A stretch of DNA of 64,000 bases from a virus. Location of the stretch: positions 28,547-92,546 of IMG/VR virus record IMGVR_UViG_3300035689_000004; one strand, written 5' to 3'. The notes below the pieces were generated by a model. It was not told where the DNA came from and ran no database searches. It saw nothing but the letters and a program-made list of their open reading frames with translations. The position numbers were made by a program, and so were the translations under genes. Below, piece by piece: positions 18,391-54,722 of the stretch; the stretch's first letter is position 1, and each line of letters begins with the position of its first letter.

Positions 18391-19877
18391 AATTTATCGG
18401 TGATTGGCAACCCTCTGACGCCCACGCGATCGCGCTACAGCTGCGTAAATCCTTGAGCGTTGACGCCGGCGGTGGTGCTGAAATAACGGTGCAGCAGCTA
18501 GACGATAACCCGATCCAGCAAATGCTTAGCCAACGGCAAAAGCGATTGCTGGACCTGCTGCGGGAGGCGGGTAGCAAAACCTTCAGTGAAGCGCCCCTGG
18601 CCAAGGCACTATGGACCGATGACCATACCTGCACCCCTGGTTGCCGCCATGATTGGCTGGAGGACTATAGCCTAGGTGCCCTGACCAAGGCGGTGAGCCG
18701 GGGAGCGCTCAAGCGCGATGCCCAGGGACGCGCCTATGTGTTTAATGCCAATAACCGCTGGCAGCGCTACAATGCCACGCCGCCCCCGCCTGGTGACTAT
18801 CGTTTCCCCCTAGGCGATGGTGACTATGGCCGGGGTGTTTATCTTCCTATCCTCGATACGCCCCAGGGCTACGCCAAGCTACGGGTACGGCTCAACCTAT
18901 CGCCCGCTCAACTGATCAGCGACGATGAGTTCTATGCCATCGAAGACAATTTCGCCATGGACCTGACCACCGCCCTCGATCGCCAGGGCGTTCGGGGTGT
19001 GGTGCAGACCGAAGGCGATCGCGTGTCGTTGTTATTCCTACGCTCCCCCGCCGACATCGAAGTGCTCGGGCTAATTGCTGACTCCGGCATCGTTCCCTCT
19101 GGGCCCGACTTTAGCTATCGCCTATCCTCCTTTGTCGCCAATGACGACCATTGGACGCTGGATCTAGAGCTATCCCCCGCCGGTGATCCACCCTCCCCCC
19201 AGGCGCTTGTCAAGGCGGCTAAGGTTACCCTATTTCCCGATACGCCCCTAGCCACCGCCACCACCAGCCGCGCTCGGGGGTTGCTTAGCCGTCGCCTGCT
19301 GCGGGATGCCTGCGATCGCCTCCGCGCAGACGGGCTAATGGGCTACTGCACCATTCAACTGATTGATAGCGCCCCCGACTGGCTACCCCGCCATTGCAAA
19401 GCCTTTTGTCACCCCTCCACCGGCGTTATCTACCTGGTAGACCACGACCCCGCTGATGCTTTAATGGACCGGCTATTGATGCTTAGCCGTCAGCTAGAGG
19501 ATGCCGCTAGCGATGGCATCATCACCTATGCCCAGGCGATGGATACCCTCCAGGCAGGGCTAAAGCTGACCAGTCAATGCTGGCTAGAATGCCTCCTGCG
19601 GCGGTTTATCGGAGCGTGCTTGATCGCTAGTCGCCATGACCTATCAACCAGCGCTGACTACGGCCCCTGGCAGGGCTACCTATCCTTGCAAGCCGCTCGC
19701 GGGATTCAGTACTGGGGCGATCGCACCGCGATCGTTCGGTGCATGGCCGAAGACTATCGCTGTTGCTTTGAACCAACGGGACTACCTAACGAGGTGACGA
19801 TGATTTGGGATATGGTGACGCCTGCGATCGCCAGGATGGCGCAACAACAATTGATGGAGGTATTGAGTAATGCCTAA
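18381..19877 (+). CDS. Putative head-associated / internal protein
   Basis: Directly after portal; four L-x-K-[AS] sites and the shared Y..N.N.RW.R module. Confidence 0.55.
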   Translation: MELEFIGDWQPSDAHAIALQLRKSLSVDAGGGAEITVQQLDDNPIQQMLSQRQKRLLDLLREAGSKTFSEAPLAKALWTDDHTCTPGCRHDWLEDYSLGALTKAVSRGALKRDAQGRAYVFNANNRWQRYNATPPPPGDYRFPLGDGDYGRGVYLPILDTPQGYAKLRVRLNLSPAQLISDDEFYAIEDNFAMDLTTALDRQGVRGVVQTEGDRVSLLFLRSPADIEVLGLIADSGIVPSGPDFSYRLSSFVANDDHWTLDLELSPAGDPPSPQALVKAAKVTLFPDTPLATATTSRARGLLSRRLLRDACDRLRADGLMGYCTIQLIDSAPDWLPRHCKAFCHPSTGVIYLVDHDPADALMDRLLMLSRQLEDAASDGIITYAQAMDTLQAGLKLTSQCWLECLLRRFIGACLIASRHDLSTSADYGPWQGYLSLQAARGIQYWGDRTAIVRCMAEDYRCCFEPTGLPNEVTMIWDMVTPAIARMAQQQLMEVLSNA

Positions 19878-19985
19878 CTGCTCTCCCCGCAACTATTCAA
19901 CACCGCCAACCCTCTGTGTAGTGGAGGTTGTCGGTTTGAGTGTTGGCAAATGGCCTAAATTTGGACTAAATGGAGGGCTGGAGTA

Positions 19986-21548: not shown

Positions 21549-21549
21549 T

Positions 21550-25067: not shown

Positions 25068-25789
25068 TCTATTACCGTTTCTATGGATGCTTGTACGAGC
25101 ACCGGGGAGATCGCCTGTGCAAGGTAGCGGTCGGCACGATGCAGACCCGTAATGGCATCCAGTACCAGCTAAACCAAAACCATCGCTGGCAACGGGTCAA
25201 GGATTTTGCTGTCCATGAGGGCGATGAGGTAGGGCGTAACGTAGCGGCATGGAAGGCAGGCAAGGTGATTGGCGGAGCGGTCGCTAACCACGCGATCGCC
25301 ATGGGTGCTGACCCGATGGCGGCTCAGTTAATTTCAGAAACCGTGGTGCAGGCGGGTACGGCAACGGCACTATGGGCCGCCCAGCAAGCGCGTAAGGGCA
25401 CCCTTACCGCCGAAGGGTTAGCGGCTTACTTTATCCAACAATCAGCGGCGGCAGCCCTGGGCAAGATGGCCCACCACGAGGCAGAGCATTGGTTGCATAC
25501 CTACAACGCCCAGGCGATCGCCCAGCAGGTAGGGCCAATCTTGGCGGGCAAGGGGGCGGGGCTAGGAACAGTTGTGACGACCGCTAAGACTAAAGCCCAT
25601 ACCGCGTTGGTAGACTGGGTGGTTAGCCGCAGCAAGCATGATCTAGCGATGCTGGGCAAGGTGTTTGGCCATGACCTAGCCAAGGCGGCTGACCCGCAGG
25701 CGATCGCATTGTTGTGGCAATTGCACCAAGCAGGTATTGCCATGGCCGCTATGCAGTTGAGGTATGCCCATGATGAACATCAGCCCTGA
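25064..25789 (+). CDS. Putative internal head (ejected) protein with Ala/Gly-rich hydrophobic helices
   Basis: N-terminal YRFYGCLY tag, LCKV, GTMQTRNGIQYQLNQNHRWQR module, LAKA near C-terminus. Confidence 0.55.
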   Translation: MIYYRFYGCLYEHRGDRLCKVAVGTMQTRNGIQYQLNQNHRWQRVKDFAVHEGDEVGRNVAAWKAGKVIGGAVANHAIAMGADPMAAQLISETVVQAGTATALWAAQQARKGTLTAEGLAAYFIQQSAAAALGKMAHHEAEHWLHTYNAQAIAQQVGPILAGKGAGLGTVVTTAKTKAHTALVDWVVSRSKHDLAMLGKVFGHDLAKAADPQAIALLWQLHQAGIAMAAMQLRYAHDEHQP

Positions 25790-31522: not shown

Positions 31523-31633
31523 CAATTCAACTTTAGGGGTTACTTATCCATAGGCACCTTTGGCATTTCTCCGTAGTAAAAACGCTATAGACGTGCTAAA
31601 AATACACTTGTGTTTTATTTTTGCTACACGCCC

Positions 31634-32746
31634 ATGCCTGGCATTCGCACCCTATACCCCCGTGGCAGTAAAGAAGACGGTTTAGGCGTATTCCTAGCCA
31701 AGATGGGCAGACACAAGCTTCTCACCCCTGCCCAAGAGATAGAGCTAGGGCGACAGGTGCAGGAGGGGCTATGGGCCGCGGCAACGGTCCTGGACGATCG
31801 CGATCGCCGTCAGCCACTACAGGAAGATTTCGAGCGCCAGCACCGTAGCGAGCACGGTGAATTACCAACTCAGGTGGAAATTGACGCTTACTTTGACGAG
31901 GCACGGCAGCGGTTGATTGATACCTACCGCCAGGGCCACCCGGAGGCGACAGAGGCGGAGATGCGCCGACACTTTGAACGGGTAGCCCGGCAGGGCAAGA
32001 AAGCTTGCGACCAGATGGTAATCCGCAACCTGCGCCTAGTAGTGAGTGTGGCCCACAAATATTCCAAGCACGGGCTAGAGCTAGGCGACTTGATCCAGGA
32101 GGGCGTTGTTGGCCTAGTGCGAGGGGTAGAAAAATTTGACCCGGCGAAGGGTTATAAATTTTCGACCTATGCCTACTGGTGGATTCGTCAGGCGATCACC
32201 CGGGCCATCAGCAACAAAGCCAAGTCGATCCGCCTACCGATCCATGTTGTGGACGTACTCAACAAGGTGCGCCGCTATGGCCATGTTTTTCGGGCTCAGC
32301 ACGGACGCTACCCAAGCGATCGCGAAGTGGCCGAGCATTTCTCCTCCCGCAATGGCGTTTCTGCCGATGAATGGCTACGACGCTTGCAACGGTTCAAGGC
32401 GATGAATATCGCGCCGACCAGCCTGGACCACGTGGTAGATAACGGCGATCGCGCTAAAAGCACAATCCACGACCTTGTAGGGGGTATTGATGATAGCTCT
32501 ATCAGTTTGTTTGGAGATCAGGTTATCGAGGAATTGGGCGCCGCTGTGGTGGGCTTGCCGACCAGGGAGCGGCAGGTGGTGGAACTAAAGTACGGGCTAC
32601 TCAGCGGTACGCCTAAATCCCTCAGCGAAGTGGCTAGGGAGATGGATGCACCCCTGGCGACGGTACGAACGATCCACGTCAGGGCATTACGGCGATTGTC
32701 TAGGGAGCGGCGGGGCTTGCGATCGCTGCTCGAAGGACTAGATTGA
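31634..32746 (+). CDS. Phage-encoded RpoD-family (group 1/2-like) sigma-70 factor
   Basis: [11 protein letters not shown] (1.2), [44 protein letters not shown] (region 2), [12 protein letters not shown] (region 4); start uncertain (31610 or 31634). Confidence 0.92.
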
Positions 32747-32787
32747 ACCCCGATACAATAGGGGGTAAATTACCCCTCTCTTACCCC

Positions 32788-35700
32788 ATGGCCATCAATA
32801 CCCTGCGCCCGCTGCGCCCCCGGCGGGCTATTTTATTGCGCAAAGACGCCCAGTTTGACTTGTTTGGCGGACAGGCAGAAGTAAAGCCGACAGCGGCGGC
32901 CAAGCGCCGGGAGCGAATTGCAGCAGGCTGGGGGGCTAAACCTAAAACCCAGCTAGGGCTATTTGGGCAGGATGACGATGTACCTGCCACCAAAGGCAAG
33001 GTAAAACCTAAGGCGCCTAAGGCACCCGTCGCGCCCAAGGTGCCAGAGGTAAAAGCGCCAGAGGTAAAAGCACCTGCTACACCTAAGGCGCCGTCTATGG
33101 CAGCAAAGGGACCCAAGGAGGGCGACACTCGCATTAACCGGGCAGGCAATCAGGAAGTATTGCGGGCAGGACGATGGCGGCTAGCCAGCAACCCTAAGGT
33201 AGTGGCTAAGGATAAGGGTAGTGCCGCGATCGTCCCGGTGGTTCAGGAGATTAAGGAGGAGAAGCCGGTAGAGAAACCAGCGGCAGCACCGGCGAAGGTA
33301 GAAGAGGTTAAGCCTGAACCCGTTGAGGTGCAGCAAGAGGTGAAGCCCGCCGAGCCAACTCCCGCGATCGCCGAGGAGAAACCTAGTCAGCAAGGATTGC
33401 CCCGGGCAACCATCCACCATGAGCGGCTTAATCGTTTCAAAAATCTTGCCAATAACGCTAGTGCGCTTCCCCCGGGTTCTAATAAAGAATCCATGAGAGC
33501 CGCTTTCCGGAAACTTTCTGGGGCGGTAAAAGATGAAGACAAAGTAGTACAAAGATGGCTGCGCGACTGGGAGAAGGAAGGGCTATCGCCTGATGAGGCG
33601 ATGCAAAGAGCTTATCGGTATGGTCAAGGGTTAGATCCCGTTCAGTCAGCGGAAGCACCAGCAACACCCACCACGCCGGAGCAACCTGCCGCTGAGCCAA
33701 CCCCGGCGATCGCGGTTGATGCTGACTTTGCTTCCACCAAGCAACAGAAGCAGCGCATCAAGATTAACCAGGATGTAGAGGCTCTGCTTAGCCAGAAGCC
33801 GGACGGACCTTATACCAAGGATGAATTAATCCTGCTTGCCAAGTATTCTGGCAAGGGCGGCATCACTGAAGATGACGGCAGCCTAAGCGAGTACTACACC
33901 CGTCCTGACGTTGCCAAGCACCTGACCGATATTCTCTACCAGCATGGATTTAAGGGCGGTGCCGTCCTAGAACCTAGCTGCGGTAATGGCGTATTTTTGC
34001 ATCAGTTCAAAGACGATCCCAACGTGTTGCCGGTAGGGGTGGAGCTAAGTGAAACCAGCGGCAAGGCGGCGGCAGCCCTGAACCCACACGCCGAAGTGAC
34101 AGCCGGGGCATCCTTTGAACGGTTCTGCCTAGACAATCCAGACTTTAGCCCTGATGCTGTAATCGGCAATGTTCCCTTTGGCACCCGCACCGTAGGCGGC
34201 GACCTAGAGGCATTTCGCAAGGTAGGGAAAGGATGGAAGGACAATGGCGACTTTTTCGTTCATGAAAGCCTATCCAGGCTGAAGCCAAGCGGCATCATGG
34301 CATTGATCGTGCCCCATGGCATCACCACCGGCAGCACCCATCAACGCCTGCGGGAGGAGTTGATGAAGCAAGGGCGGGTGATTGGCGTTCATCGTCTCCC
34401 TAATACCGCCTTTGCCCATACCAACACCAAGACTATTACCGATGTGCTGGTAATTCAAAAACATCCTGACGTCATCCTTAACGCGATCGCTGACGGGCAG
34501 AGTGATGTTATCGCCAAAACCCGAGACGATGCCTTTATCCATGGCAAATACTTTGAGGCTCACCCCGAACATGTCCTAGGCGAATACCAGGAGACCAGTA
34601 ACCAGTTTGGCGGTAAGTCATTTACCATCAACGGCAAGATCGAAGACGCGCTTGCCAGCGCCCAAGGGTTTACGCCAGACGTGAGCTATGACGGGCTACA
34701 AACAGATGGGGCGGAGGAGCGATCGCCGCAAAAGGGCGACACCCGTTATATCAATGGCAGACTGTACCGGCTAGAGGGTAACCCAGCCCGTTGGCACCTT
34801 GTCGAGCAATCTGAACCGGTTGCCGAGGAAGTGGACGCCTCCGGCTATGGTGCTGAGTCGATGGCAGATGCAGAGGCGCAGCTATTGGATGCGGGGCGAC
34901 GGGTCCTAATCCACCCAGATAACTTACAGGCATACCGAAACCTTGCCCACCAACACCTACCCAAGGCGGAGGCGATGGCGTTTGATGCCGCGATCGCGGC
35001 GAGTAATGCAGCAGGTTCTAGCATCGACAGGGAAAAGCTTGCCCACGCCATGCTGCTAGCAGACCACATTGAAAGGCTGCAGAAGGGCGATGCGGACCCG
35101 ATGCAGGTAGAGAAAGCGCTTAACATGCTGCAGGGCTACAGAGAGGCGCACGGCAACCCCTCGACCGACAAAACATTGATTGGGCTGTCTAGCCAATTCC
35201 CTGCGCTGTTGCGGCTACAGGGATGTTTTGACGAGAACGACAAGATCAGTGATTACTTCACCGACCATGACAAAGTTACCGCCCAGGTAAAGCGAACCCA
35301 TAGTGAAGCGGGCGCCGCTATGGCAGAAGCCTATCGCGCCGCCGGGGGCGAAGCGGTTGACCTGGACATGATCCGAGCTCAGTTAGATACAACGATGACT
35401 GATGCGGACCTAGAGGCAACCCTGGTTGCTGATCCAACGGTTGGCTATATCAATGGCGCCTACATGCCGATGGATCGGCTGCTGACCGGCAATGGCTTCA
35501 ACCTTGTTGATGCCATGCTGATGGAGGCAGAAGGGTTGCCAGAGGGTGCCGCCGCCCGGCGCAAACTTGAGGAGCAGATCGGCATCATTCGCTCCAGGCT
35601 AGAGCCAAGGCAGATGGAGGACATTACTACTCCATTCTGGGCCGTTGGCAGCTGGATACCTGTAGACGCGATTAATGCCTTTTTGACAGACCGCGACTAT

Positions 35701-38700
35701 GGTTCTTACTCCCAAGGGCAACGCGAACCTGTCAAAATCTACCGCGGGGCTGATGGTAAATGGCGGGTATCAGGCTATGCCTACGGCGTAGTAGAAGATG
35801 TCATCACCTCAATGAACCGGGGCAGGATTTCCCATGGCAAAAATACCCAAGAGGCAAAGGAAGCCGTCCAGGCGTTAGAGAAAGACTTTGCCCAGTGGAT
35901 TGCTGGCTCTGACTATCGCGTTCAGGTAGAGGAAGCCTATAACCTTGCCTTTAACTCTGACCTGCCCGAGCAGTTTAGTGGTGACCCGCTTGACATTAGC
36001 CTGTTTGAGCAATACGACGCAGACGAGGCGACCGGCAAGCGCAAAAAACGCCTGCACGACTACCAAACATCGACGATCCGGCAAATGGCCGCCCAGGGGA
36101 GAGGCATCATTGCCCTAGGGGTTGGACTTGGCAAGACAGCGACCAGTATCGGGCTAGCCTTGCACCTAAAAGAATCTGGCAGAGCCAAAAAGCCTACCTT
36201 TGTTGTACCCAAATCCGTCCTATCGAACTGGGTGAGGGAGGTAGGCTTCTGGGCACCTCAGGCGAATGTAATGATCCTGGGCCAGACCCAACGCTACTGG
36301 GCAGACGACACGCCCATGTGGGAGGTGCCAGGCTTTAAGATCGACGTTGCCAAGGGCGTACCAAAGCGCGATAAGGACGGCAACTATATTCTGTACCGTC
36401 AGATCGGGGAGCGTGACGTTACGACAAAAGGTAAAGACGGCAAAACCATAACCAAAAAGGAAAAGGTTTATGCCGATCAACCTATTTTGATGAGCGAAAA
36501 GGAATACCTCAAGGCAGGTAACCTTGTCTTTTCAGATGACGATGCCGCAACAAAACGGCTCAAACTACGCCAGTTGTCTCAAAACAACTATGACATGGTG
36601 CTGATGACGGAGCCTACCTTCCAGGCGCTTAGCTTGCACCCTGACAAAGAAACTGAGTACCTAGAGGACATCACCCAAGACGCGATCGGTCACCTGTCAG
36701 ACTCCAGCAAAGACACCCATAAGATGCTCGAAAAGATCGAGAAACGGCGGGTTAGCTTGGCCGCCAGGACTGATGACAATATCGAAGAGACGATCACCTT
36801 TGAGGAGCTAGGCATTGACGCGCTATTCCATGACGAGGCGCACCACCTTAAAAACCTGTACGGATCAAAGCGCAACCAAAGCTTAGCGTTTATGAGTCAG
36901 GCAGAGTCCAACCGATCGCTAGACTTTTACTACAAAGCCCGGTACATCCGGGAGAAAAACAACAACCAGAATGTTTACTTGCTTACCGCTACCCCTACCA
37001 CCAACAACCCGCTAGAGGCGTTTAACATGCTGCAACATGTTTGCCCGGAGGAGCTTGAAAAACGAGGCATCCAAAATATTGATGACTTCCTCGGCATGTT
37101 TGGCGATATGCAATCAGTTGAGGCGCCTGGCGTTGATGGCGAGATCAAGGAGAAATACGGGCTAGTTGGGTTCAAGAACCTTAAAGACCTGCGCCACCTG
37201 TTTAACAAGTATTGCCGGATGCAATCGGCTAAAGACGTTGGGCTTCCTATCCCTGAAGAAGCCACCCAGCATCACTATGTCAGTATGAGCCCGGCGCAAA
37301 AAGAACTTTACAACGATCTAAGGCGCCGCGCCCGTAATGCCGGTTCTGACAAAGGACCTCAGGACCACCTATTCTCAGTCATCAGCGACATGGATAAGGC
37401 GGTGATTGACCTTGCCTACTACAACGAAAGCGGTAGCGGCAAGTCTCCCCAGGTAGACATTCCAGAGGGTGAAAAGCCGCCTAAGGTTCAAGCTTGTATT
37501 GAGCAGGTGATGAGTAGCCGCAATGCCAACCAGGGCAAGCAGATCGTATTCTGTGACTCCGTGCAAATGCACCAACGCATCAAGCAACAGTTGGTCGAAG
37601 CTGGTTATCCCGAAGACCAGATCGCGATCGTCAATGCGGATGTTGCTAAAAATAGCCCAGACCGTCAGAAAATCAGCAATGCTTACAACGAAGGACGGAT
37701 TACCCTTGTCATTGGCAACACCGCCACCATGGGGGAAGGGATGAACTTTCAAATTGGCACCACTGACATTCACCACCTCACTACCCCATGGACCCCTGCT
37801 GCAATTGAACAGCGTAACGGACGGGGTGTTCGTCAAGGTAACGTACTAGACAATGTGGGCTGCCATTACTACCACGCCAAGGGCAGCTTTGACCAATATC
37901 GGCAACAAACCCTTGAGCGCAAGCGCGGTTGGATTGATGACCTATGGAAAGGGTCTGAGGATACCGCCTCCAACCAAGATACCGGGCTTCTCAATGCTGA
38001 CGAGATGGACATCATGCTGGCAGACGACCCAGAGGCGGCCCGGGCGGCGGCAGAGGCAAATCAAGAGCTTGCCCTTGACCGCCATCGCAAGAAGATGACC
38101 ACCGCCGCCCTGCGTGATTTTGCCCAGTTGCAGAACATGAGGCTGGTTGTCTCCAAGATGACCCCGGAGGCGCGCTCTAGGGAGCGTGGACGAGCGCTAG
38201 AGGCGCGACTAAGGCAGGTGACAGAAGCACTATCCAGGAATGAATACTTCCCCCACAAGCACCTGCTAGACGGCACTACGCCCGCTTATATCGGCTCTGA
38301 TGGCACCGTCTTGCAGGAGGGCGATCATGTTCGTCAGGATGATGGCAGCATTTATCAGATCACCAAGATAGACAATGCCAAGAGCAAATTTATCACCCAG
38401 ATGGTCAGCGGTCCTGACTACAGTCCATCCCGGCTATCGGAGAAGGGTGAAACCTTTGACTTTAAGCACGTCAATAGCACCAAGTCTCGCTCAGCGATCG
38501 CGCCAACGTCCTTTAACGAAAGGGTCCACGCGGACCGGGTGATTGATAGCCTATCTGCCTATGGTGCCTTTGAAACGATCGCTAGCCTATCGCCGGACGC
38601 GATCAACGAAAACCGGGGGCGAATCATGGACAAGCTTAAGAACGACTTGCCCTCCGCCTCCATGCCCTACCTGGACCCGGAGACCGATAAGCTCGTTCTA

Positions 38701-40224
38701 AATGCTTCAGTTAGCGAGATGCCAGCCAACGCCCAGGTGTTGTGGCCCCATGACGGTGAATCGATAGAAATCATCGTCAAGAAAATGGCAGAAGGTACTG
38801 GGGCAGGAACTTGGAAATTTGAAAGCCTCCTGCAACGAATGACCGGACGCAGTTGGAGCGCTGATGGATTAGGCGATGAAATCAAAGCCAGGGTGGAGGA
38901 GTACAAGCAACAAAATGCTGTCATAAAAGAGCAAGGACCTAAAGCCGGTGATACCCGTGTCAACGAGGCGGGGCACCAGGAAGTATTGCGCGATGGTCGT
39001 TGGCGTCGGGTTGACGAAGCTGACACGCCAACGCCTCAGCCTAATGCCGCCTATGCTGAAGGGTTGACGACTGAGCAACGCCTAGCCCTAGCTGAGGCGA
39101 TCAAAGAGAAAGCGCCAGCTAACTGGAGGGGCGACCAGCCACGGGAGCGCCAATTATCCAACGCGGTGTTCCAGGCGCTCGGCAATGACGTGGGGCTCAC
39201 TGTTGACGTGATGGAGCGAATTAAGCGATCGCCCTCTGACGAAGAGTTCATGGCAGCCCTGACGGCTGTTGCTGAGCCGGAGACGGCAACGGCTGAGCCG
39301 GATGCACCTGCCGTTGAAAGCGAGCCCAAGCAAACCAGATCGCCACGACTGCCAGAATCAGAGCATCCTCCCCACCCCGATCCTTTAGGTGCCATCCGTG
39401 ATGCACTAGAGCGCATCCAGGCAGATGATGACGTTGACGGCGGCGTTAAGCGCAATGGGATGGGCTGGAATTATTTCACCCGTAAGCTTGGCAGCAGCCT
39501 TGCCTATGAGGTGATGAGCGGCAACGAGCTAACACCTAGGCAGTATTACAAGGCATGGGAACTATTGACCAAACGTCATCGCCCCCAAGCAGGCGAACAA
39601 GCTACCGCCGATCAGCTTTCTAGTACGCTAAAGGAAATGTTTGGATGGGATGGCATCGAGTATGACAGCGATGGCGTAGAGGTGGGTGCCACCGGCAAAA
39701 TGCGCTTGGTTGGCGATGAAATCCATATCACCCGACCCTATAACAAAGCTGACCTTAACAAATTTAGGCGCATCCCTGGCCGCCGCTGGGACGGACAAGC
39801 TAAGGCGAACGTGATTCCTGTCCAGCGGTTCAGAGAAGCCCTAGAGCAATTCCCTGAAGAGGAGATGGACATCGATCCAGCCATCTTTGATCATCCTGGC
39901 ATCCAGGCTGACCCCGATGACATCCCAGCGGGGACCATCCAGGTTAAAGATGGAGAATTTCACATAACTTTCCCCTACGATCAAGAACTTGTCGCCCGGG
40001 TGAAAGGCATTAAGCAGCAGGGACGACAACTAGGAAAATGGGACGGCGCCAAGAAAGTATGGCGGTTCCCGGGCAGCAGAGAAGTTGAAGATTTGCTAAC
40101 CCGCGAGTTTCCAAATTTCCAATTAAAGAAAGCTGCTAAACGCTATTCCTTGGCAGGTGTTATCTACGAGCTTAGACGCACAGCCAGTAACGCCATTAGC
40201 TTAGTCCGAGTCCATCACGCTTAG
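32788..40224 (+). CDS. DarB-like polyvalent protein: N6-adenine DNA methyltransferase + SNF2 helicase + two HARP-like domains
   Basis: EYYTR, VLEPSCGNG, GNVPFG; GVGLGKT, DEAHHLKN, LTATP, GEGMNFQ, QRNGRGVRQGN; PY...IPGRRWD and FPYD...KWDGAKKVWRFP; ATG 32788 preferred to 32743. Confidence 0.88.
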   Translation: MAINTLRPLRPRRAILLRKDAQFDLFGGQAEVKPTAAAKRRERIAAGWGAKPKTQLGLFGQDDDVPATKGKVKPKAPKAPVAPKVPEVKAPEVKAPATPKAPSMAAKGPKEGDTRINRAGNQEVLRAGRWRLASNPKVVAKDKGSAAIVPVVQEIKEEKPVEKPAAAPAKVEEVKPEPVEVQQEVKPAEPTPAIAEEKPSQQGLPRATIHHERLNRFKNLANNASALPPGSNKESMRAAFRKLSGAVKDEDKVVQRWLRDWEKEGLSPDEAMQRAYRYGQGLDPVQSAEAPATPTTPEQPAAEPTPAIAVDADFASTKQQKQRIKINQDVEALLSQKPDGPYTKDELILLAKYSGKGGITEDDGSLSEYYTRPDVAKHLTDILYQHGFKGGAVLEPSCGNGVFLHQFKDDPNVLPVGVELSETSGKAAAALNPHAEVTAGASFERFCLDNPDFSPDAVIGNVPFGTRTVGGDLEAFRKVGKGWKDNGDFFVHESLSRLKPSGIMALIVPHGITTGSTHQRLREELMKQGRVIGVHRLPNTAFAHTNTKTITDVLVIQKHPDVILNAIADGQSDVIAKTRDDAFIHGKYFEAHPEHVLGEYQETSNQFGGKSFTINGKIEDALASAQGFTPDVSYDGLQTDGAEERSPQKGDTRYINGRLYRLEGNPARWHLVEQSEPVAEEVDASGYGAESMADAEAQLLDAGRRVLIHPDNLQAYRNLAHQHLPKAEAMAFDAAIAASNAAGSSIDREKLAHAMLLADHIERLQKGDADPMQVEKALNMLQGYREAHGNPSTDKTLIGLSSQFPALLRLQGCFDENDKISDYFTDHDKVTAQVKRTHSEAGAAMAEAYRAAGGEAVDLDMIRAQLDTTMTDADLEATLVADPTVGYINGAYMPMDRLLTGNGFNLVDAMLMEAEGLPEGAAARRKLEEQIGIIRSRLEPRQMEDITTPFWAVGSWIPVDAINAFLTDRDYGSYSQGQREPVKIYRGADGKWRVSGYAYGVVEDVITSMNRGRISHGKNTQEAKEAVQALEKDFAQWIAGSDYRVQVEEAYNLAFNSDLPEQFSGDPLDISLFEQYDADEATGKRKKRLHDYQTSTIRQMAAQGRGIIALGVGLGKTATSIGLALHLKESGRAKKPTFVVPKSVLSNWVREVGFWAPQANVMILGQTQRYWADDTPMWEVPGFKIDVAKGVPKRDKDGNYILYRQIGERDVTTKGKDGKTITKKEKVYADQPILMSEKEYLKAGNLVFSDDDAATKRLKLRQLSQNNYDMVLMTEPTFQALSLHPDKETEYLEDITQDAIGHLSDSSKDTHKMLEKIEKRRVSLAARTDDNIEETITFEELGIDALFHDEAHHLKNLYGSKRNQSLAFMSQAESNRSLDFYYKARYIREKNNNQNVYLLTATPTTNNPLEAFNMLQHVCPEELEKRGIQNIDDFLGMFGDMQSVEAPGVDGEIKEKYGLVGFKNLKDLRHLFNKYCRMQSAKDVGLPIPEEATQHHYVSMSPAQKELYNDLRRRARNAGSDKGPQDHLFSVISDMDKAVIDLAYYNESGSGKSPQVDIPEGEKPPKVQACIEQVMSSRNANQGKQIVFCDSVQMHQRIKQQLVEAGYPEDQIAIVNADVAKNSPDRQKISNAYNEGRITLVIGNTATMGEGMNFQIGTTDIHHLTTPWTPAAIEQRNGRGVRQGNVLDNVGCHYYHAKGSFDQYRQQTLERKRGWIDDLWKGSEDTASNQDTGLLNADEMDIMLADDPEAARAAAEANQELALDRHRKKMTTAALRDFAQLQNMRLVVSKMTPEARSRERGRALEARLRQVTEALSRNEYFPHKHLLDGTTPAYIGSDGTVLQEGDHVRQDDGSIYQITKIDNAKSKFITQMVSGPDYSPSRLSEKGETFDFKHVNSTKSRSAIAPTSFNERVHADRVIDSLSAYGAFETIASLSPDAINENRGRIMDKLKNDLPSASMPYLDPETDKLVLNASVSEMPANAQVLWPHDGESIEIIVKKMAEGTGAGTWKFESLLQRMTGRSWSADGLGDEIKARVEEYKQQNAVIKEQGPKAGDTRVNEAGHQEVLRDGRWRRVDEADTPTPQPNAAYAEGLTTEQRLALAEAIKEKAPANWRGDQPRERQLSNAVFQALGNDVGLTVDVMERIKRSPSDEEFMAALTAVAEPETATAEPDAPAVESEPKQTRSPRLPESEHPPHPDPLGAIRDALERIQADDDVDGGVKRNGMGWNYFTRKLGSSLAYEVMSGNELTPRQYYKAWELLTKRHRPQAGEQATADQLSSTLKEMFGWDGIEYDSDGVEVGATGKMRLVGDEIHITRPYNKADLNKFRRIPGRRWDGQAKANVIPVQRFREALEQFPEEEMDIDPAIFDHPGIQADPDDIPAGTIQVKDGEFHITFPYDQELVARVKGIKQQGRQLGKWDGAKKVWRFPGSREVEDLLTREFPNFQLKKAAKRYSLAGVIYELRRTASNAISLVRVHHA

Positions 40225-40631: not shown

Positions 40632-41698
40632 AATTATTCAAAAAGCGCAGACCCGCGATCGCTAAGTTTGACCCCTACCAAACAGCACTCCAACAATCCA
40701 TGGAAAGTGATCGCCAGGAGGTGCTGGAGAAAACAGCGACAGGACCCATCTTTACCCTCATGGGTGTCCCCTATATCTTTGACCCAGCCCAAGGGGTGCT
40801 GTGTAAGGCGGGGCGACGACGGGCACCCTCCCCGGGCCAGCTAGGTTTATTTGGCGGCCACAATGAGGGCGATACTAAGGTAGAGGATGGTGTCACTTAC
40901 CGGCTCAATGCCAATAGCCGATGGGAACGGATGGACAAACCCAAAGCCAGCGGCAAAAGGAAGCCAAAGCCCGCGATCGTCCCGGTGGTAGAGGCGGAGA
41001 AGCTTATGCCTGAGGTAGTTGACGATGCGCCCAAGCCTACTAGGCTAGGCGATCGCATCCGAGCGATCGCCAATGACCTGCGTGACGAAAATGATGAGCA
41101 GAAAAAGATCGCGGCTCGCATCTTAGGCGCAGCGGCCCAGATGGCGCAGAACTACGACAACTTGGTGGGTGAAGTTGTGGATATGGTGGGCGAGGACTTG
41201 GGTGAGGACATCAGAAGCCTTAACCCAGACGCCACCCAGGCGGACGTAGAGATGGCAGCCAGAGACGGCGGCAACGAGCCATCCCCCACCCGACTGGCTG
41301 ACAAAATGAAGGCGATCGCTAATGACCTGCGCAACGAAACCAACGAGCAGGTTAAGGCAACCGCCCGCATCCTTGACGCTGCCGCCCAAATCGCTCAAAA
41401 CTACGACAACCTAGTCGATGAAGTGGCGGAGATGGTGGGCGAAGACCTTCGCAAGCCATTAGATTCTACTCTCACCAAATCCTTGCCCCCTAGCCCCGTC
41501 TTTACCTTAATGGGTGTGCCCTACATCTTTGACCCCCACCGCGCCGTCCTGCGCAAGGCTGGCACCAGTTGGGAGCAGTTTGTAGCTGACCTCAGCAAGG
41601 AAGCTGATGACGATCCATGCTGGGAGGGCTACGAGGCTGTAGGCATGAAAAAGAAACGCGGCAAGATGGTTCCGAATTGTGTTCCTGTAAGCCGCTAA
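40628..41698 (+). CDS. Modular putative internal head protein
   Basis: Two FTLMGVPYIFDP tags, three L-x-K-[AS] sites, QLGLF/RW module, duplicated helical repeat, C-terminal CWEGY...VPNCVP. Confidence 0.65.
   Translation: MKLFKKRRPAIAKFDPYQTALQQSMESDRQEVLEKTATGPIFTLMGVPYIFDPAQGVLCKAGRRRAPSPGQLGLFGGHNEGDTKVEDGVTYRLNANSRWERMDKPKASGKRKPKPAIVPVVEAEKLMPEVVDDAPKPTRLGDRIRAIANDLRDENDEQKKIAARILGAAAQMAQNYDNLVGEVVDMVGEDLGEDIRSLNPDATQADVEMAARDGGNEPSPTRLADKMKAIANDLRNETNEQVKATARILDAAAQIAQNYDNLVDEVAEMVGEDLRKPLDSTLTKSLPPSPVFTLMGVPYIFDPHRAVLRKAGTSWEQFVADLSKEADDDPCWEGYEAVGMKKKRGKMVPNCVPVSR
40805..41002 (+). repeat. Dispersed coding repeat, copy 1 (copy 2 at 52686-52901)
   Basis: 51-aa peptide identical but for one residue; DNA differs mostly at third codon positions. 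Confidence 0.92.
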
Positions 41699-46079: not shown

Positions 46080-46284
46080 TTGGCGTTCTTACCTGGAAGG
46101 CGTCCGGGATGCGCTATGCGCCTTCGATAAGCCTACCGCGTTCGATATCCTGGAGTTAGCGATGCGCTTTAACGAGTCTGGCGATCGCGCTGACATTTAC
46201 CAAGCTTGGCGCTCCATGTTTCCCCACTGGCGACCAACACGGGATATGGAGCGTCAAAGCTTCCAGCGTTGGGGCGTCGAATAA
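46072..46284 (+). CDS. Hypothetical protein
   Basis: GGAGG RBS; TAATG coupling to the next gene. Confidence 0.55.
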   Translation: MINWRSYLEGVRDALCAFDKPTAFDILELAMRFNESGDRADIYQAWRSMFPHWRPTRDMERQSFQRWGVE

Positions 46285-47315
46285 TGTGGTCCCCCCTTGC
46301 CCCCGATGATTTCAGCCAGTTTGAACCGACCGATATTATCGCGTTCCTAGATTGGTTTGAACGACAGTACGAGGACGCGATCGCCCTCGGCATTGTCGAT
46401 GGCTATGTGGAGGGGGTGACAGAGCCCTACCTGGTGAATATCTCCACCGGCCAACCGATACCGGAGTGGGTAGCGACCGTCCTCAAGGTACGAGAAGTGG
46501 CCCAATGGGCGTACCAACAACAGGAACCGATTGCCGCCCGCCTGCGCCGCAACCTAGCCGCCATCATCCCAGATGATCAGGTGGCAGGCTACGCCGCCCG
46601 GTTTAGGGTAACCCCGCAGGACATTGCCAACGTCCCCCCGGCGGTGAGGGAGAGCTTTAACCAGGGCGCTCGCTTTTCACTGGACTGGGTGAAACGCTTG
46701 TCCGATGACGCCCGGGGCATGATGCGGGACGTGCTGGCGGTGGAGTCGCTAAAGAACCGTAACCCCGCCGGGGCCGTACCCATCCTTGAAAACCTATTGC
46801 GCCGCGATCTAATCGCCCAGGAGCTAGGGGCGGACCCTAGCGCTGTCACCCCGGCCATGGTGCAGGAATGGTTGATTAATACCGAGTCACGGTTGTTAAA
46901 TGCGATCGCGTCCCGGGCGCAAACCATTTCCCGCACCGAATCCATGCGAATGATGAACTTGGGCATCCTGGCCACGCTGGAGGCAAGCGGGCAACGACTA
47001 GCCTATGTGATGCCCCACGCGGGTAGTTGTGAGCATTGCCGCCGGTTGATTGACGGTCGCGTTTTTACAATAGAGGTGCTAAAGCGCAACCTATTTGCTA
47101 ATTTTGGCGTTCGCCCCGATGCCTGGGTCGCTAGTCTGCCCCAGCATCCTAACTGTCGCCATTCGGCAGGCAAGATACCGGTTAAGTTTAGGCGCAAGCT
47201 TGCCAACATGGAGATCCCCCCGGAGGGGCTGGTGCTGCAATACTACGGCTTGCCGGGCGGTAAAACGTCCATGGATGCCCTGGAACTGCCAGAAGTGGAA
47301 TGGCTAGAGCCCTAG
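46284..47315 (+). CDS. Head morphogenesis protein (Mu gpF / SPP1 gp7-like)
   Basis: RAQTISRTE...N.G, CEHC, PQHPNCRH. Confidence 0.82.
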   Translation: MWSPLAPDDFSQFEPTDIIAFLDWFERQYEDAIALGIVDGYVEGVTEPYLVNISTGQPIPEWVATVLKVREVAQWAYQQQEPIAARLRRNLAAIIPDDQVAGYAARFRVTPQDIANVPPAVRESFNQGARFSLDWVKRLSDDARGMMRDVLAVESLKNRNPAGAVPILENLLRRDLIAQELGADPSAVTPAMVQEWLINTESRLLNAIASRAQTISRTESMRMMNLGILATLEASGQRLAYVMPHAGSCEHCRRLIDGRVFTIEVLKRNLFANFGVRPDAWVASLPQHPNCRHSAGKIPVKFRRKLANMEIPPEGLVLQYYGLPGGKTSMDALELPEVEWLEP

Positions 47316-49334: not shown

Positions 49335-49873
49335 GGAGACTGTTATTGCTAGATCACACCGCCCTGGTGCAACACCGCAACGGACCCGGCATCTACATCA
49401 ACAACCGGGACGATATGGTGCTGGTTCCAGGTATCCTAGGCGCCCTGGAGCCTTACATTGATAAGGGCTACAACGTCGCCATCTGTAGCAACCAGGGCGG
49501 CGTTGAGAAAGGCCACCTAGCCTTCGGCGCCTGCCAAAGCCTATTCGGTGAAATGTTCAAGCTGTCCAACTATTGGGTTCAGGCCATTTGGTTTTGCCCC
49601 CTAGCCCGGGGCAGCACCGGCAGTTATGCCATCCAGATGACGATGCCCTACGAGCCTAAGGAATACAGCAAGTGTCAGAAGTATGCCAGCACTGGCTACC
49701 GGATGCCCAAGGCGGGCATGATTTTAGCCGCCATGAACTGGTTCAGGGTGACACCTGAGCAGACCACCATGGTGGGCTTACAGCCAAATGCTTACGATGC
49801 CGCCGCTGATGCGGGCGTCAGAAAGTTTGTCCACAGTTCCTATTTCATTGAAAAAGCGGGAGTATTGCAATGA
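49331..49873 (+). CDS. HAD-IIIA (GmhB/PNKP-type) phosphatase-like protein, catalytic motifs degenerate
   Basis: SNQGGV, RMPKAGM, TMVG; motif I LDHTAL. Confidence 0.65.
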   Translation: MRRLLLLDHTALVQHRNGPGIYINNRDDMVLVPGILGALEPYIDKGYNVAICSNQGGVEKGHLAFGACQSLFGEMFKLSNYWVQAIWFCPLARGSTGSYAIQMTMPYEPKEYSKCQKYASTGYRMPKAGMILAAMNWFRVTPEQTTMVGLQPNAYDAAADAGVRKFVHSSYFIEKAGVLQ

Positions 49874-50994
49874 AGTTTACAGTTGATGCAGAAGTATTGG
49901 CAGAGGCGATCGCGCTGTGCGATCGCGCTATCCCTAAGCGCCCTAGCCGCCCTATCCTGGGCCACATGCTAATGCAGCTAGACAATGGCAGCCTTACCCT
50001 AAAAGGGTTTGACGAAGCGCTAGGGATTAGCTTTTCGTTGCCAGTAGACATGGAGCGATCCGGTGATTGCTGTGTGTCGCCTACCTACCTAAAACCCATC
50101 TTGGAGCGCCTATCAGGGCAGGTGGCTTTAGATCTGCAGCACCCTGTCCTGGTGCTAACCACCCTAGGCGGTGAGTACCGGATTAATACCCTCCTGGCTG
50201 AGGACTACCCCAACTTGCCTGAGGTGGACGGCACCCCGGTGGAGTTGTCCATATCCTCAGAAGAACTACGGGCCGCGATCGCGGCTACGGTGTTCTGTGC
50301 CAGCACCGACGAAAGCAAACAGGTGCTGACCGGCGTCCATTTCTCTGTCACCCCCGGCGAAGAGGGGGAGGCAGGGGTAATGGAATTAGCGGCCACCGAT
50401 GGCCATCGAATGATCGCCTATCCGCTACCCGGCGGTAGTGTTGTCATCCCCGAGGACTATCGCCCCGTCACCCTACCCGGGAAGAGCCTGCGGGAATTGT
50501 TAACCGTCCTGAAGGGCTACGAAGGCACCGTCAAGCTAACCTTTGACGATGTGTCTGTACATGCCCTGTGTGGCGACACCGAGCTTTACAGCCGTGTCAT
50601 CGAGGGGCAATACCCCAACTACCGGCAGCTATTCCCCAAGGTGTTCTCCAAGGTGGCGACCTGCGATCGCAAACCGTTTCTGTTAGCCCTCGATCGCACC
50701 CTGGTGGTGGCCGGTGAAAACCGAGACATCGTTAAGCTGGAGTTTGACACCACTGGGCTGGTGATGAGTGCAGAGGCAAAAGAGGCGGCCAAAGCTCAGG
50801 AGCAGGTTGCCGGTGCAGCCTGCAACGACGCTATCACCCTGGCGGGCAATGGCAAGTACATCAAGGAGGCGCTAACCAACGCGATCGTTGGCGAAACCTT
50901 CACCATGGAGATGAATAAGCCGGAAAGCCCAGTGGTTTTTACAGATGGGTCCCCGGCGACCTATTTGATGATGCCCATTCAGATTAGGAGTTAG
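49870..50994 (+). CDS. dnaN: DNA polymerase III beta sliding clamp
   Basis: RPILG, STDESKQVLTGV, AATDGHR, GQYPNYRQL, YLMMPIQIRS; 374 aa. Confidence 0.95.
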   Translation: MKFTVDAEVLAEAIALCDRAIPKRPSRPILGHMLMQLDNGSLTLKGFDEALGISFSLPVDMERSGDCCVSPTYLKPILERLSGQVALDLQHPVLVLTTLGGEYRINTLLAEDYPNLPEVDGTPVELSISSEELRAAIAATVFCASTDESKQVLTGVHFSVTPGEEGEAGVMELAATDGHRMIAYPLPGGSVVIPEDYRPVTLPGKSLRELLTVLKGYEGTVKLTFDDVSVHALCGDTELYSRVIEGQYPNYRQLFPKVFSKVATCDRKPFLLALDRTLVVAGENRDIVKLEFDTTGLVMSAEAKEAAKAQEQVAGAACNDAITLAGNGKYIKEALTNAIVGETFTMEMNKPESPVVFTDGSPATYLMMPIQIRS

Positions 50995-50996: not shown

Positions 50997-51176
50997 ATGA
51001 ACCTGAAGCCCGGCTATGCGATCGCCTATCGCCCATCCACGGAGGAACCCTGGCAACAAGCGTCTGTCTTTGCGGTCGATGGCGATAAGGTGATGGTTAA
51101 ACTGCCACCACGCGCCCACGCGTCTAGGTTTGTCACGGTGGACATTGACAGTGGTTTGATAGGGCCACCGTTCTGA
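50997..51176 (+). CDS. 59-aa small beta protein (not in track)
   Basis: AGGAG RBS, TGATG coupling; MNLKPGYAIAYRPSTEEPWQQASVFAVDGDKVMVKL. Confidence 0.6.
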   Translation: MNLKPGYAIAYRPSTEEPWQQASVFAVDGDKVMVKLPPRAHASRFVTVDIDSGLIGPPF

Positions 51177-51916: not shown

Positions 51917-51992
51917 CCATTTCTCGAACCTACGCTAAGATAGGCATAGCGTAGGCATAATTTATTTCCTATCCCTAGCTCCTATCTCCTCC

Positions 51993-54722
51993 ATGGTTCT
52001 TCCGGTGGAGGCTATCCTGTCCAAGTCAGCCGATATGGTTGTGGGCGGGGTAGCCTCCAATTTTTTTAGAGATCTTGACGGCGATGCCATTTGCCCGGAC
52101 GCGATTCAACGCGCTATCCCTGGCTTCATGGCAACCCGTGGCCCGGACGGGCTAAAGGGTGGCCCCATTCGCCTGCACCATGGCTTCTGGGAGCGATTTC
52201 TAAAGCAGTCTATCTCTGCCCTTAATATTCCCTACGACCAACAAGTGGGGCTACTAGCCGCGATCGCGCTCCCCCTGGGCCGGGTGACTGAGATGAGCGT
52301 CGATAGCGATGGCACTACGCGCTGGCGGGGTGTCCTGTCTGGCGCTAACCCCATCGCCCGGGTGGTGTGGAATATGCTCAAAGAGGGCATGGTTCACCTT
52401 GGCGTTAGCGTGGGTGGCAAGATCAACGGTGTACGCCCCGGCAGAGATGCGATCGGGCGGACCTGCAACCTGATTACCGACGTACGGCTGGACGAATTGA
52501 GCATTACTGACAACCCGGCCAACCGGCTAATTGAGTCCGAGACCCCCGACAATGGCGCCTACATTACCGCGCTTGCTAAATCTGTGGGTAATACCATGCT
52601 CGCTCAGAAACAACAGCATTACATCTACCTGAATGGCATCGCCTATACCGCTCACCCTAGCGAAGAGCATGGCATTGTCCTACGCAAGGCAGGACGGCGG
52701 CGAGTGCCCTCCCCGGGCCAGCTAGGCTTATTTGGTGGCCACAATGAGGGCGATACCAAAGTAGAGGACGGTGTTACCTATCGGCTAAATGCCAATAGCC
52801 GCTGGGAACGGATGGATAAACCCAAGGCCAGCGGTAAGCCGTCTGGCGGGAAGATGAAGGCGGAAAAACCTGCGATCGTCCCGGTGGTGGAGGCGGAGAA
52901 GGGAGAGGCTAAGCCTGAGGACGTTGAACCTAGCATTTCAACCTCTGCTGAACCTAAAGCAAGCCGCACTAGCAGAAGCTTTACCGCTGAAACGCTTACG
53001 CCTCAAGATATTCAATTGAGCGACATCCAGGAAGTCGCTGGCGAAGAGTCGCTTCACGGGGAAAAGCAATACTCATTAAGGAATTTATTTGATCCTACCG
53101 CTTCACCGCTTAAGCTGGGATTTTTCCCGTCCGCTAATGCGGCCTTAGCCACTGTTCAGGACGAAATGGAGTTTCCGTATTATGTAGGTGAAATGGAGAT
53201 GGCGGCAGGGGCTCTTGGACGCATTGAGCGACGAGAGGCGGTTGCTGAAATGGTGCTTGGCGCGATTCGGAAACGGGTGGCTGACGGCGAATCGGTGCTA
53301 CTGTCCCAAGGGCGGTACGGCATGAGTTCTCGCAATCCCAAAAGTACCGTCATTGATGCCGACAGCGTCGATCTCCTCAGGGCCAGGAATGGGAATATTG
53401 AGCTGAAGCATGGTCAAAAATGGGTACAACATACGGCGGGTTTTGACCTGCTGGAATTGGCCCAGCGGGTAGGACTTGATCCTGAAGCCCTTGATGCCTT
53501 CATTTCAGGTGACTCCGACCCCGAACCCACCGTTAGCGAAATGCTGGAGCAGCAGCAAGCCGCGATCGCGGATGAGCCTATGCCTGAGGGTGAGGCGATG
53601 GAGGGGGCGGATGATGACTGGGAAAGCAAGCTGCAAGAGCTTCAATCCATTGGCAATCAAGCCAAATTAGATGGACCCGAGGGTGTGAAGGATGACGCGA
53701 CAGAGGCGCCTGGGGTTTCTTACAATCCTGACTTAGTGCAGCAACGAATCAACCAAGGTTATTTTGAAGGCCGGGCTTTCTACTCAAAAGCCGTACAAGC
53801 CATGAAAGCAGCATTGTCAGCAGGTAGATCTGTCAAACTGCATTTTGATGACCAAAGTAGCTATGGCGCCAATCTGGTAGCTGAAATCGACGGGGTTCGG
53901 CACCCTATCACTCGCTCGAAACTAAAGCCAAAAGATATTGCGTTTCTCCTGACGGTCAACAGTCATTCGGCAATGGACGTTTCGGCAGGCGCCTTGGAAC
54001 AATTAGGACTAGGCAGCAAAACTGCCCCAACCGGACGCAAACGATCTTCCGCCTTTACCAAATCCTCCACCCCCTCACTCCCCATGACTATCGATAACTT
54101 CCTCCGCAAAGCCCTGGGCAATCCTGGGCGTGAGTTTGGTTCTGGCGCATGGCGGGATACGGGCATCCCGGCGATGGGTCGCAAGGTTGACGCCAAAAGC
54201 CCGCAGCCGAAGGGTGGCAAAGAGGTACAAATGGATGAATCCGGCAGTGCCCATGCCGGTAAGGGTATCGGTGGCAAGCAACCCAAAGCCCATCGCCCCT
54301 ACTCCTCCGGCGGTATGCCCCCCACCGATGTATTCGGTATCACCATCACCCAGCTGACCCGCAACCTAGCTAAAGCTTGCTACATGGACAAGGACGCCTG
54401 GGGTAGCCCGGAGACGGTTTCTTTCTTGACCGACAGCGCCAGGGCGATCGCGGGCATGACTGACACCCCGACCGACCCGATGGTGAACTTTGTCCGGTTC
54501 TTGCAATACTGCACCCGTTTCGCCCAAGAATTGCCGTTTATGAACGACTACCAGGCGGCGGGGACGGTGAAGGCGATGAATGCCGACCTAACCAAAGCAC
54601 TGGACGAATTCGTAGAGAAGATGCCTGAGGAGCTAAAGGGAAAACCTTTGCGCCCTGCCGGTTCACCCGGCGTTGTGGGCATCGACGTTCAGTTTCCCCA
54701 ACAGTACGTTATTTACTCCTAG
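51993..54722 (+). CDS. Prohead maturation protease (HK97-type) fused to a long multi-module extension
   Basis: GVAS...RDLDGD, LHH, GVSVGG, LDELSITDNPAN. Confidence 0.82.
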   Translation: MVLPVEAILSKSADMVVGGVASNFFRDLDGDAICPDAIQRAIPGFMATRGPDGLKGGPIRLHHGFWERFLKQSISALNIPYDQQVGLLAAIALPLGRVTEMSVDSDGTTRWRGVLSGANPIARVVWNMLKEGMVHLGVSVGGKINGVRPGRDAIGRTCNLITDVRLDELSITDNPANRLIESETPDNGAYITALAKSVGNTMLAQKQQHYIYLNGIAYTAHPSEEHGIVLRKAGRRRVPSPGQLGLFGGHNEGDTKVEDGVTYRLNANSRWERMDKPKASGKPSGGKMKAEKPAIVPVVEAEKGEAKPEDVEPSISTSAEPKASRTSRSFTAETLTPQDIQLSDIQEVAGEESLHGEKQYSLRNLFDPTASPLKLGFFPSANAALATVQDEMEFPYYVGEMEMAAGALGRIERREAVAEMVLGAIRKRVADGESVLLSQGRYGMSSRNPKSTVIDADSVDLLRARNGNIELKHGQKWVQHTAGFDLLELAQRVGLDPEALDAFISGDSDPEPTVSEMLEQQQAAIADEPMPEGEAMEGADDDWESKLQELQSIGNQAKLDGPEGVKDDATEAPGVSYNPDLVQQRINQGYFEGRAFYSKAVQAMKAALSAGRSVKLHFDDQSSYGANLVAEIDGVRHPITRSKLKPKDIAFLLTVNSHSAMDVSAGALEQLGLGSKTAPTGRKRSSAFTKSSTPSLPMTIDNFLRKALGNPGREFGSGAWRDTGIPAMGRKVDAKSPQPKGGKEVQMDESGSAHAGKGIGGKQPKAHRPYSSGGMPPTDVFGITITQLTRNLAKACYMDKDAWGSPETVSFLTDSARAIAGMTDTPTDPMVNFVRFLQYCTRFAQELPFMNDYQAAGTVKAMNADLTKALDEFVEKMPEELKGKPLRPAGSPGVVGIDVQFPQQYVIYS
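52686..52901 (+). repeat. Dispersed coding repeat, copy 2
   Basis: Matches 40805-41002. Confidence 0.92.

Follow-up and report, generated by a model that had tools for sequence, protein, structure and literature searches.

A portable G-D-T…R-W module on virion-associated phage proteins and its possible docking role inside the capsid

The subject of this study is a module of about 25 residues, here called B, in a phage known from IMG/VR record IMGVR_UViG_3300035689_000004. The window is the stretch of 64,000 nucleotides that was analyzed, bases 28547-92546 of that 92,546-bp viral record. B has the skeleton G-D-T-[KR]-x3-(N)G-x-T-Y-x-[LF]-x2-4-R-W-x-[RL], and the reading preferred here, with a probability only slightly better than even (about 0.55), is that it is a portable docking handle keeping packaged anti-defense cargo on the inner capsid shell. 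B would hold virion-interior proteins against the inner capsid face, or against an inner-shell partner, until they exit with the DNA. In this phage group it would belong to a composite leader that recombination shifts onto different payloads, among them a DarB-like methylase-helicase, small proteins of unassigned function, and an insertion in the prohead protease. Docking is favored because B occurs only on phage carriers encoded in virion modules, because it is fused to many unrelated payloads, because the leader is swapped among payloads in close relatives, because paralogues that have to fit the same, highly conserved capsid are strongly constrained, and because a relative of B in phiKZ gp184 has been seen bound to capsid. 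Binding to the capsid interior in this phage is argued by analogy with that relative.

Copies of the module and the leader around it

The module occurs seven times in five proteins of the window, as the original prediction held, and by coordinates and profile scan every copy that it listed lies in its place. The set is larger genome-wide, with nine copies in seven proteins of the whole 92.5-kb phage; the two additional copies, at genome positions 7396 and 16633, had been overlooked, as had two companions of B, an upstream meander (A) and a Q-L-x-L-F motif. The copies in the window score expect values (E) of 1e-7 to 1e-12 with a profile built from the copies, and the next six-frame match has E of at least 0.3. 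The two carriers outside the window are encoded in the tail/baseplate gene region, not in the head region. Because other phages have B on only one or two proteins, the seven carriers are an expansion in this phage group.

Two of the carriers, o40628 (from 40796) and the protease o51993 (from 52677), share a block of 54 codons with 2 amino-acid changes and 21 synonymously changed codons, and the similarity ends sharply at both edges; the 51-residue block with one amino-acid change described earlier was borne out within it. By the Nei-Gojobori method (S=40.7, N=121.3), there are 23 synonymous and 2 non-synonymous differences, giving a synonymous divergence (dS) of 1.05, a non-synonymous divergence (dN) of 0.017, and a ratio (omega) of 0.016, so the strong purifying selection originally proposed is upheld. 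Random placing of the 25 nucleotide differences gave about 17 amino-acid changes, with two or fewer in 0 of 20,000 trials. In a nucleotide tree of copies from four related genomes, the copies cluster by locus and not by genome. Gene conversion as the source of the near-identical pair is therefore ruled out, and the pair is an old duplication maintained by selection.

B is one part of a longer leader, in the order A, basic patch, [SA]-P-G-Q-[LM]-x-L-F, B, Lys/Pro-rich linker, and hydrophobic-acidic motif. A is an upstream beta-meander of the form (M)KIYTLxGVPY…G-[IV]-V-L-x-K-A, and A-like matches number 29 in representative carriers against 0 expected, 17 of them beginning at residues 2-6. The hydrophobic-acidic motif is AIVPVVE in this phage and L-x-V-[IL]-x-D-E-P elsewhere; it stands behind 26 of 233 B copies (0.5 expected). 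As had been noted, exactly three proteins (o32743, o40628, and o51993) have AIVPVV behind B. L-x-K-[AV] lies 1-23 residues ahead of B in o18381, o25064, o40628, and o51993, and L-x-K-A is possibly a protease-recognition or cut site.

The strict motif Q-[LMF]-x-[LM]-F occurs 56 times in B carriers against 1.6 expected (35-fold enriched), with 25 of the 56 located 1-15 residues upstream of a B. The linker that holds it is predicted to be disordered, with a predicted local distance difference test score (pLDDT) of 50-64. This genome has seven strict motifs of the Q-L-x-L-F type (0.36 expected), six of them in B proteins. The seventh heads a stand-alone DNA methyltransferase (genome 5729-6517, L063:5729-6517; PHROG E 3e-33) that begins M-H-Q-L-A-L-F; no other clamp-binding-like motif of this genome lies outside the B proteins. 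A parallel N-terminus (Q-L-A-L-F) is found on the DarB-like protein of Bordetella phage PHB04. A variant arrangement is seen in a tandem B carrier of related genomes (G001 68533-67370; G003 18551-19900), where a degenerate B (…F-R-L-N-K-D-H-Q-W-E) is followed by L-S-K-A-G, Q-L-G-L-F, and a canonical B, and the slot that A normally fills contains a B-like unit.

The features of the window are as follows; E-values given for B are from the hidden Markov model (HMM) scan.

16852-18390: portal gene (PHROG E 1e-37), its 3' end overlapped by the start of o18381
18681-18695, + strand: L-T-K-A ahead of B in o18381
18702..18767, + strand: B in o18381, a protein of 498 amino acids (E 2.5e-10; coordinates from the regular expression)
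25115-25129, + strand: L-C-K-V, with an A-like segment, ahead of B in o25064
25133..25195, + strand: B in o25064, 241 amino acids (E 4e-12)
32743..40224, + strand: DarB-like carrier o32743, 2,493 amino acids (Pfam N6_Mtase, SNF2, Helicase_C)
32851..32964, + strand: two Q-[LF]-x-L-F motifs at the N-terminus of o32743 (QFDLF 32851-32865; QLGLF 32950-32964)
33121..33183, + strand: B copy 1 of o32743, residues 127-147 (E 5e-8), then AIVPVV at 33226-33243
34735..34800, + strand: B copy 2 of o32743, residues 665-686 (E 6e-10), between the N6-methylase and the SNF2 helicase
38947..39009, + strand: B copy 3 of o32743, residues 2069-2089 (E 1e-8), past the helicase
40233-40631: Ulx-like gene directly after the DarB-like gene (PHROG Ulx-like E 8e-9)
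40796..40957, + strand: conserved 54-codon block of o40628, comprising the end of A with L-C-K-A, a basic patch, QLGLF (40838-40852), and B (40868-40930); AIVPVV follows at 40973-40990
41501..41563, + strand: A for a second time in o40628, with L-R-K-A-G, close to the C-terminus and not followed by B
46206-47315: MuF-like minor head protein
49870-50994: possible phage sliding-clamp gene
51993..54722, + strand: HK97-family prohead protease carrier o51993, with an insertion of about 490 residues
52623..52889, + strand: inserted cassette of o51993, comprising A (52623-52691), L-R-K-A-G, QLGLF (52719-52733), B (52749-52811), and AIVPVV (52872-52889)
55573-56562: major capsid protein (MCP) gene (PHROG E 9e-30), two genes downstream of o51993

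Copy 2 of o32743 is an "NP.RWH" variant, and both its position and its variant recur in PHB04 and in many giant carriers. The last ~35 residues of o40628 (window 41560-41695; C-W-E-G-Y-E…G-K-x-V-P-N-C-V) match six function-unassigned PHROG families with E down to 1e-8; this widespread cysteine motif sits right behind the second A/L-R-K-A-G element. The gene directly upstream of the DarB-like gene (window 31610-32746) has a translation that reads like a sigma-70-type factor. The Pfam tally has sigma-70 regions 2 and 4 fused into a single unrelated giant carrier of B, a hint that sigma factors may be among the packaged cargo. A tblastn search of the INPHARED phages with the window protease gave no match. 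The host is probably a filamentous cyanobacterium, because relatives of the protease occur in Leptothoe, Leptolyngbya, and Desertifilum.

Carriers in other phages and exchange of payloads

B is widespread on phage proteins and matches no characterized domain in the databases searched. With isolated modules, Pfam at E<=10 gave only a sub-threshold, compositional match to LZ_Tnp_IS66; B had no match in NCBIfam, module-bearing regions had none in PHROGs, and a search of PDB sequences with the B profile returned nothing at E<=10. A wide VIA-align search found no match at Z>=2, and the ESM Atlas gave no usable feature match, its rows being weak structural ones only (TnpV, DUF6550, choline-binding repeats). 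Close relatives from a word-indexed protein search numbered only 8. When 1.84 billion cluster representatives were searched exhaustively with hmmsearch, 159 carriers scored E<=1e-3, 42 of them E<=1e-10. At the nucleotide level, a degenerate DNA pattern for B had 5 matches among 596 Gb of prokaryotic genomes; in IMG/VR it matched 18 stretches, on about 10 contigs unrelated to this phage.

The carriers are mostly giant phage "polyvalent" proteins, such as DarB-like methylase-helicases, ADP-ribosyltransferases, and nucleases, and many are 1,000-3,450 amino acids long with 2-4 copies of B. Domains fused to B include SNF2, N6_Mtase, LPD1/3, ART-PolyVal, InPase, Ntox46, PBECR3, ddrB-ParB, RadC, and one sigma-70; five Mu-type portal proteins hold B in C-terminal extensions. 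Both this domain repertoire and the predicted delivery by packaging resemble what has been reported for polyvalent proteins (Iyer et al. 2017, PMC5512222), but B matches neither an LPD nor any other Pfam model, and the main text of that paper has no description of it. None of the six conjugative or plasmid members sampled, all plasmid-borne DarB homologues, has B; this sample is small. Six phage DarB-like proteins were compared; B is present in that of PHB04, after the methylase as in the phage studied here, and partly present in that of Thermus phage Lalka27a.

B proteins adjoin genes for terminase, head protease, and MCP in unrelated phages, and likewise in two of the five prokaryote-genome matches (metagenome-assembled genomes). 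The gene contexts of individual contigs are as follows.

L040: B protein adjoins the terminase
L041: B protein near a tape-measure-like gene
L042 and L043: gene context uninformative
L044: B protein adjoins the terminase and a minor head protein
L048: B protein separated by a few genes from those for head protease and MCP
L050: B protein two genes ahead of those for protease and MCP, with a short open reading frame of 120 amino acids between

The gene order also extends to a cultured phage. PHB04 (L029, MF663786.1), a 94-kb myovirus, has in common with this phage the order portal, protein of about 490 residues, …, DarB-like protein.

Movement of the leader is seen in three long contigs whose MCP is 96-98% identical and which bear the leader on different proteins. 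In two of these three relatives, the DarB slot is occupied by a mosaic protein of about 1,000 residues (G002 9838-12876, L019; G003 10665-13895, L024). Only its first ~180 residues, with the Q-x-x-L-F motifs, B, and AIVPVV, are common to the DarB-like protein of 2,493 residues, and its C-terminus matches o40628. Since the mosaic has replaced the DarB-like gene while keeping the leader, the payload is, as judged from these alignments, exchanged at a fixed locus in close relatives. The original prediction of a module shuffled among head cargo is supported with respect to the shuffling, as the same leader is found on different payloads beside nearly the same capsid; "head cargo" is too narrow a term for the gene context because two carriers are in the tail/baseplate region.

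The prohead protease is a further example of such an arrangement. Residues 7-205 and 700-909 of o51993 align to the two halves of a 417-residue protein (P0166), and the first segment has 59% identity to it under the NCBI name "HK97 family phage prohead protease"; the match of o51993 to Pfam S78 is sub-threshold (E 0.027). By this alignment, o51993 is a compact HK97-family protease split by an insertion of about 490 residues consisting of A, motif, B, and a variable payload. Only one of 55 compact protease homologues has B.

Fold and likeness to phiKZ gp184

In AlphaFold models, A and B are separate three-stranded meanders with a disordered linker between them. B alone, modeled with AlphaFold2 from a more diverse alignment, forms a three-stranded meander with pLDDT 91-92, in agreement with the earlier suggestion of a small domain, here predicted to be autonomous and self-folding. 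The best PDB fold match is chain I of 8y6v, which is phiKZ gp184; it ranked 1 of 350,542 chains with the B-only model and 2 with the longer model. B and 8y6v_I superpose with a root-mean-square deviation of 1.4 Å over 25 residues, 28% identity, template modeling scores of 0.57/0.65, and E 0.12. The best ungapped match of B in gp184 starts at residue 78 with 7/25 identities, and because this equals the Foldseek figure, the modeled piece is very probably the segment at about 78-102.

A profile-profile comparison (hhalign) of B with the gp184/Psa21 meander gave a probability of 93.9% and E 1.5e-7 over 28 columns, against a maximum probability of 14.7% and a maximum score of 15.3 with 60 shuffled-column profiles. 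A plain HMM search does not join B and gp184 (3.2 bits). The segments are P-E-P-G-D-T-Y-H-V-N-G-V-D-W-I-Y-Q-E-D-G-G-W in gp184 and P-K-E-G-E-S-Y-Q-V-G-P-N-H-W-V-W-A-N-G-R-W in Psa21 gp249, and the latter bridges gp184 to the "NGRWHR" flavor of B. All three have the skeleton P-x-x-G-[DE]-[TS]-x3-(N)G-x2-aromatic-x-hydrophobic-x3-4-G-[GR]-W; gp184 differs from B in having Trp/Tyr for Tyr/Leu in strand 2 and in the absence of the N-x-N turn, and from B carriers in having one copy per protein and neither A nor Q-L-x-L-F. Taken as a whole, the profile comparison supports homology of B with the gp184 meander, for which no name was found in the literature searched. Among the minor proteins of the phiKZ capsid, gp184 is the one that is beta-rich; it is processed by the head protease, and by cryo-electron microscopy has a short ordered piece wedged between gp86 and the hexamer center on the inner capsid surface (PMC11297242).

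Residues 117-226 of gp184 (L065:38470-39159) are homologous to the Thoeris anti-defense protein Tad1 (PDB 8kbb, 7uav; E 2e-6 to 4e-6), so this inner-capsid minor protein appears to carry a packaged anti-Thoeris sponge domain. The layout of gp184 would then be that of the carriers described here: processed N-terminus, meander, and anti-defense payload. Psa21 gp249 (L069:557-832) has the gp184-type meander as a separate protein of 91 amino acids with no Tad1-like domain, and the orthologues in 201phi2-1, PA1C, and Phabio are Tad1-like proteins without the meander; because the meander is missing from those three, it is a separable module there as well.

WW domains are likewise three-stranded antiparallel meanders of about 25-35 residues, in which strand 2 bears a conserved aromatic residue and strand 3 a Trp. 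Unlike them, B has no N-terminal structural Trp and no C-terminal Pro, and its spacing between strands 2 and 3 is shorter; no WW match to B was found in Pfam (E<=10), in the PDB sequence search, or among the best 50 PDB fold matches.

Docking, entry, and action after injection

The nearest functional parallels are the capsid-targeting sequences of P1 DarB and the T4 internal proteins, where a short N-terminal element loads heterologous cargo into the head. The DarB-like carrier is followed by the Ulx-like gene, as darB is by ulx in P1. In P1, the first 30 residues of DarB are enough to direct cargo to the capsid (PMC9024508), and DarA-Hdf pairs attach to the inner shell and exit with the DNA (PMC12810830). 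However, both B and Q-L-x-L-F are missing from P1 DarB, whose N-terminus is not related; the P1 and T4 signals are short linear N-terminal peptides, whereas B is folded, also internal, and present in several copies. A pure entry signal is also weakened as an explanation by the presence of B on portal and protease proteins and by the 54 of 55 compact protease homologues that are without it. Portal and protease enter the procapsid anyway and do not need B for it, which argues that the job of B is docking or retention rather than entry.

Several observations weigh against docking. Two carriers are encoded in the baseplate region, and B is absent from the DarB-like proteins of P1, Bcep22, LASTA, and PBC5. 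The Foldseek E-values for B (0.12-0.19) are non-significant alone, as is expected for about 20 residues. The gp184 profile contains four sequences from only two distinct lineages; the homologue search with gp184 gave only two close sequences, and the profile-profile test thus depends on few sequences. The assignment of the modeled gp184 residues to about 78-102 comes from matching identity counts. The Q-L-x-L-F companion, if its likeness to the beta-clamp-binding motif is taken at face value, points to a role after injection, and the phage itself is known from sequence alone. The cutting of L-x-K-A and the role of Q-L-x-L-F are likewise presumed.

A role after injection for the Q-L-x-L-F motif, perhaps for B too, is a serious rival to docking. 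In this explanation, the motif would attach to the beta sliding clamp, that of the host or of the phage, with B as an accessory contact, and injected effectors would be recruited to clamp-loaded DNA. The clamp-binding motif of Escherichia coli Pol II is QLGLF and the consensus is QL[SD]LF (PMC3716654); the forms found here (QLGLF, QLSLF, QMSLF, QLDLF) match these, QLGLF being exactly that of Pol II. They lie in disordered linkers or termini, as is usual for clamp motifs. The strong enrichment of the motif in B carriers, often just upstream of B, its excess in this genome, and the example that heads a stand-alone DNA methyltransferase are all as this explanation would predict, and if L-x-K-A is cut, motif and B would both remain on the mature cargo. 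The motifs here differ from the usual clamp motif in that they mostly follow [SA]-P-G, have B within 15 residues, and are on virion proteins. To our knowledge, clamp partners need no adjacent folded domain, which counts against a clamp role for B. The strict motif is found in only a third of B carriers while B is constant, B is on portal fusions and on many non-DNA enzymes, and its resolved relative binds a capsid protein. As an account of B, recruitment to the clamp is thus considered unlikely. No clamp motifs on injected proteins and no packaging module in polyvalent proteins have been described in the literature searched. The two roles could also be combined in a two-address tag, in which A and L-x-K-A would direct processing by the head protease, B would dock the mature cargo on the inner shell, and the exposed Q-L-x-L-F would, once ejection is over, load that cargo (methylase-helicase and other effectors) onto the host beta sliding clamp, where it would act in cis on incoming DNA; this combination is a speculative proposal, with the odds well against it.

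The original prediction was of a small DNA-binding or ejection-piloting domain, and a handle that tethers cargo to the packaged genome, exits with the DNA, and acts in cis would be one form of it. AP2/ERF and integrase arm-binding domains are examples of how a three-stranded sheet bearing conserved Arg and Trp is able to read DNA. The flanks of B in this phage are basic (RRR; KPK-rich), multiple copies in one giant protein would add avidity, and the P1 Dar proteins, which act in cis, contact DNA (PMC12810830). Over 225 copies, however, the flanks are neutral on average and the core has a mean net charge of +0.6, with values <=0 in 55% of copies and conserved Asp/Glu positions; DNA binding is unlikely because the core is near neutral with conserved acidic positions. 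A known DNA-binding domain can be rejected, given the lack of a Pfam or NCBIfam match and a surface that is not basic. The plasmid DarB homologues sampled act on DNA too, yet are without B, and the fusion partners of B include ADP-ribosyltransferases, pyrophosphatase, toxins, protease, and portal; the only structurally resolved relative binds capsid protein and not DNA (PMC11297242). The DNA-binding function is therefore not sustained, and a genome tether is slightly less probable than recruitment to the clamp. Least probable of all is that B has no partner and is a fast-folding spacer in tail-threaded proteins, or a recognition element for the maturation protease. The location of B at domain boundaries with low-complexity linkers on both sides, its 2-4 copies per giant protein, the conserved L-x-K-A upstream, and the enriched hydrophobic-acidic motif downstream would all suit such a role, but an omega of 0.016, invariant Trp and Gly, and a conserved exposed face of Tyr, Leu, and Trp exceed what a spacer needs, and the relative in gp184 takes an ordered form against capsid proteins (PMC11297242).

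If docking on the inner shell is correct, B adds to what is known of how phages arm themselves. Phages deliver anti-defense enzymes by packing them in the head, and how cargo is loaded and held is known in few model phages, where short phage-specific peptide signals do the loading. B is a small folded unit that can be read by sequence across many uncultured phages and moved between payloads. It would then allow injected proteins to be predicted from metagenomes by a sequence signature, would account for a density in the phiKZ capsid that has no name, and could serve as a small tag with which foreign proteins are loaded into phage heads. PHB04, with an N-terminal Q-L-A-L-F and an internal B on its DarB-like protein, is a tractable experimental model for the module. 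That B is so tightly paired with a clamp-binding-like motif hints at a connection, open to testing, between packaging and the action of the cargo after injection, and, if the two-address proposal is true, the leader would be a general, recombination-portable system to pack and then aim injected anti-defense proteins, extending from cyanophages to phiKZ-like jumbo phages.

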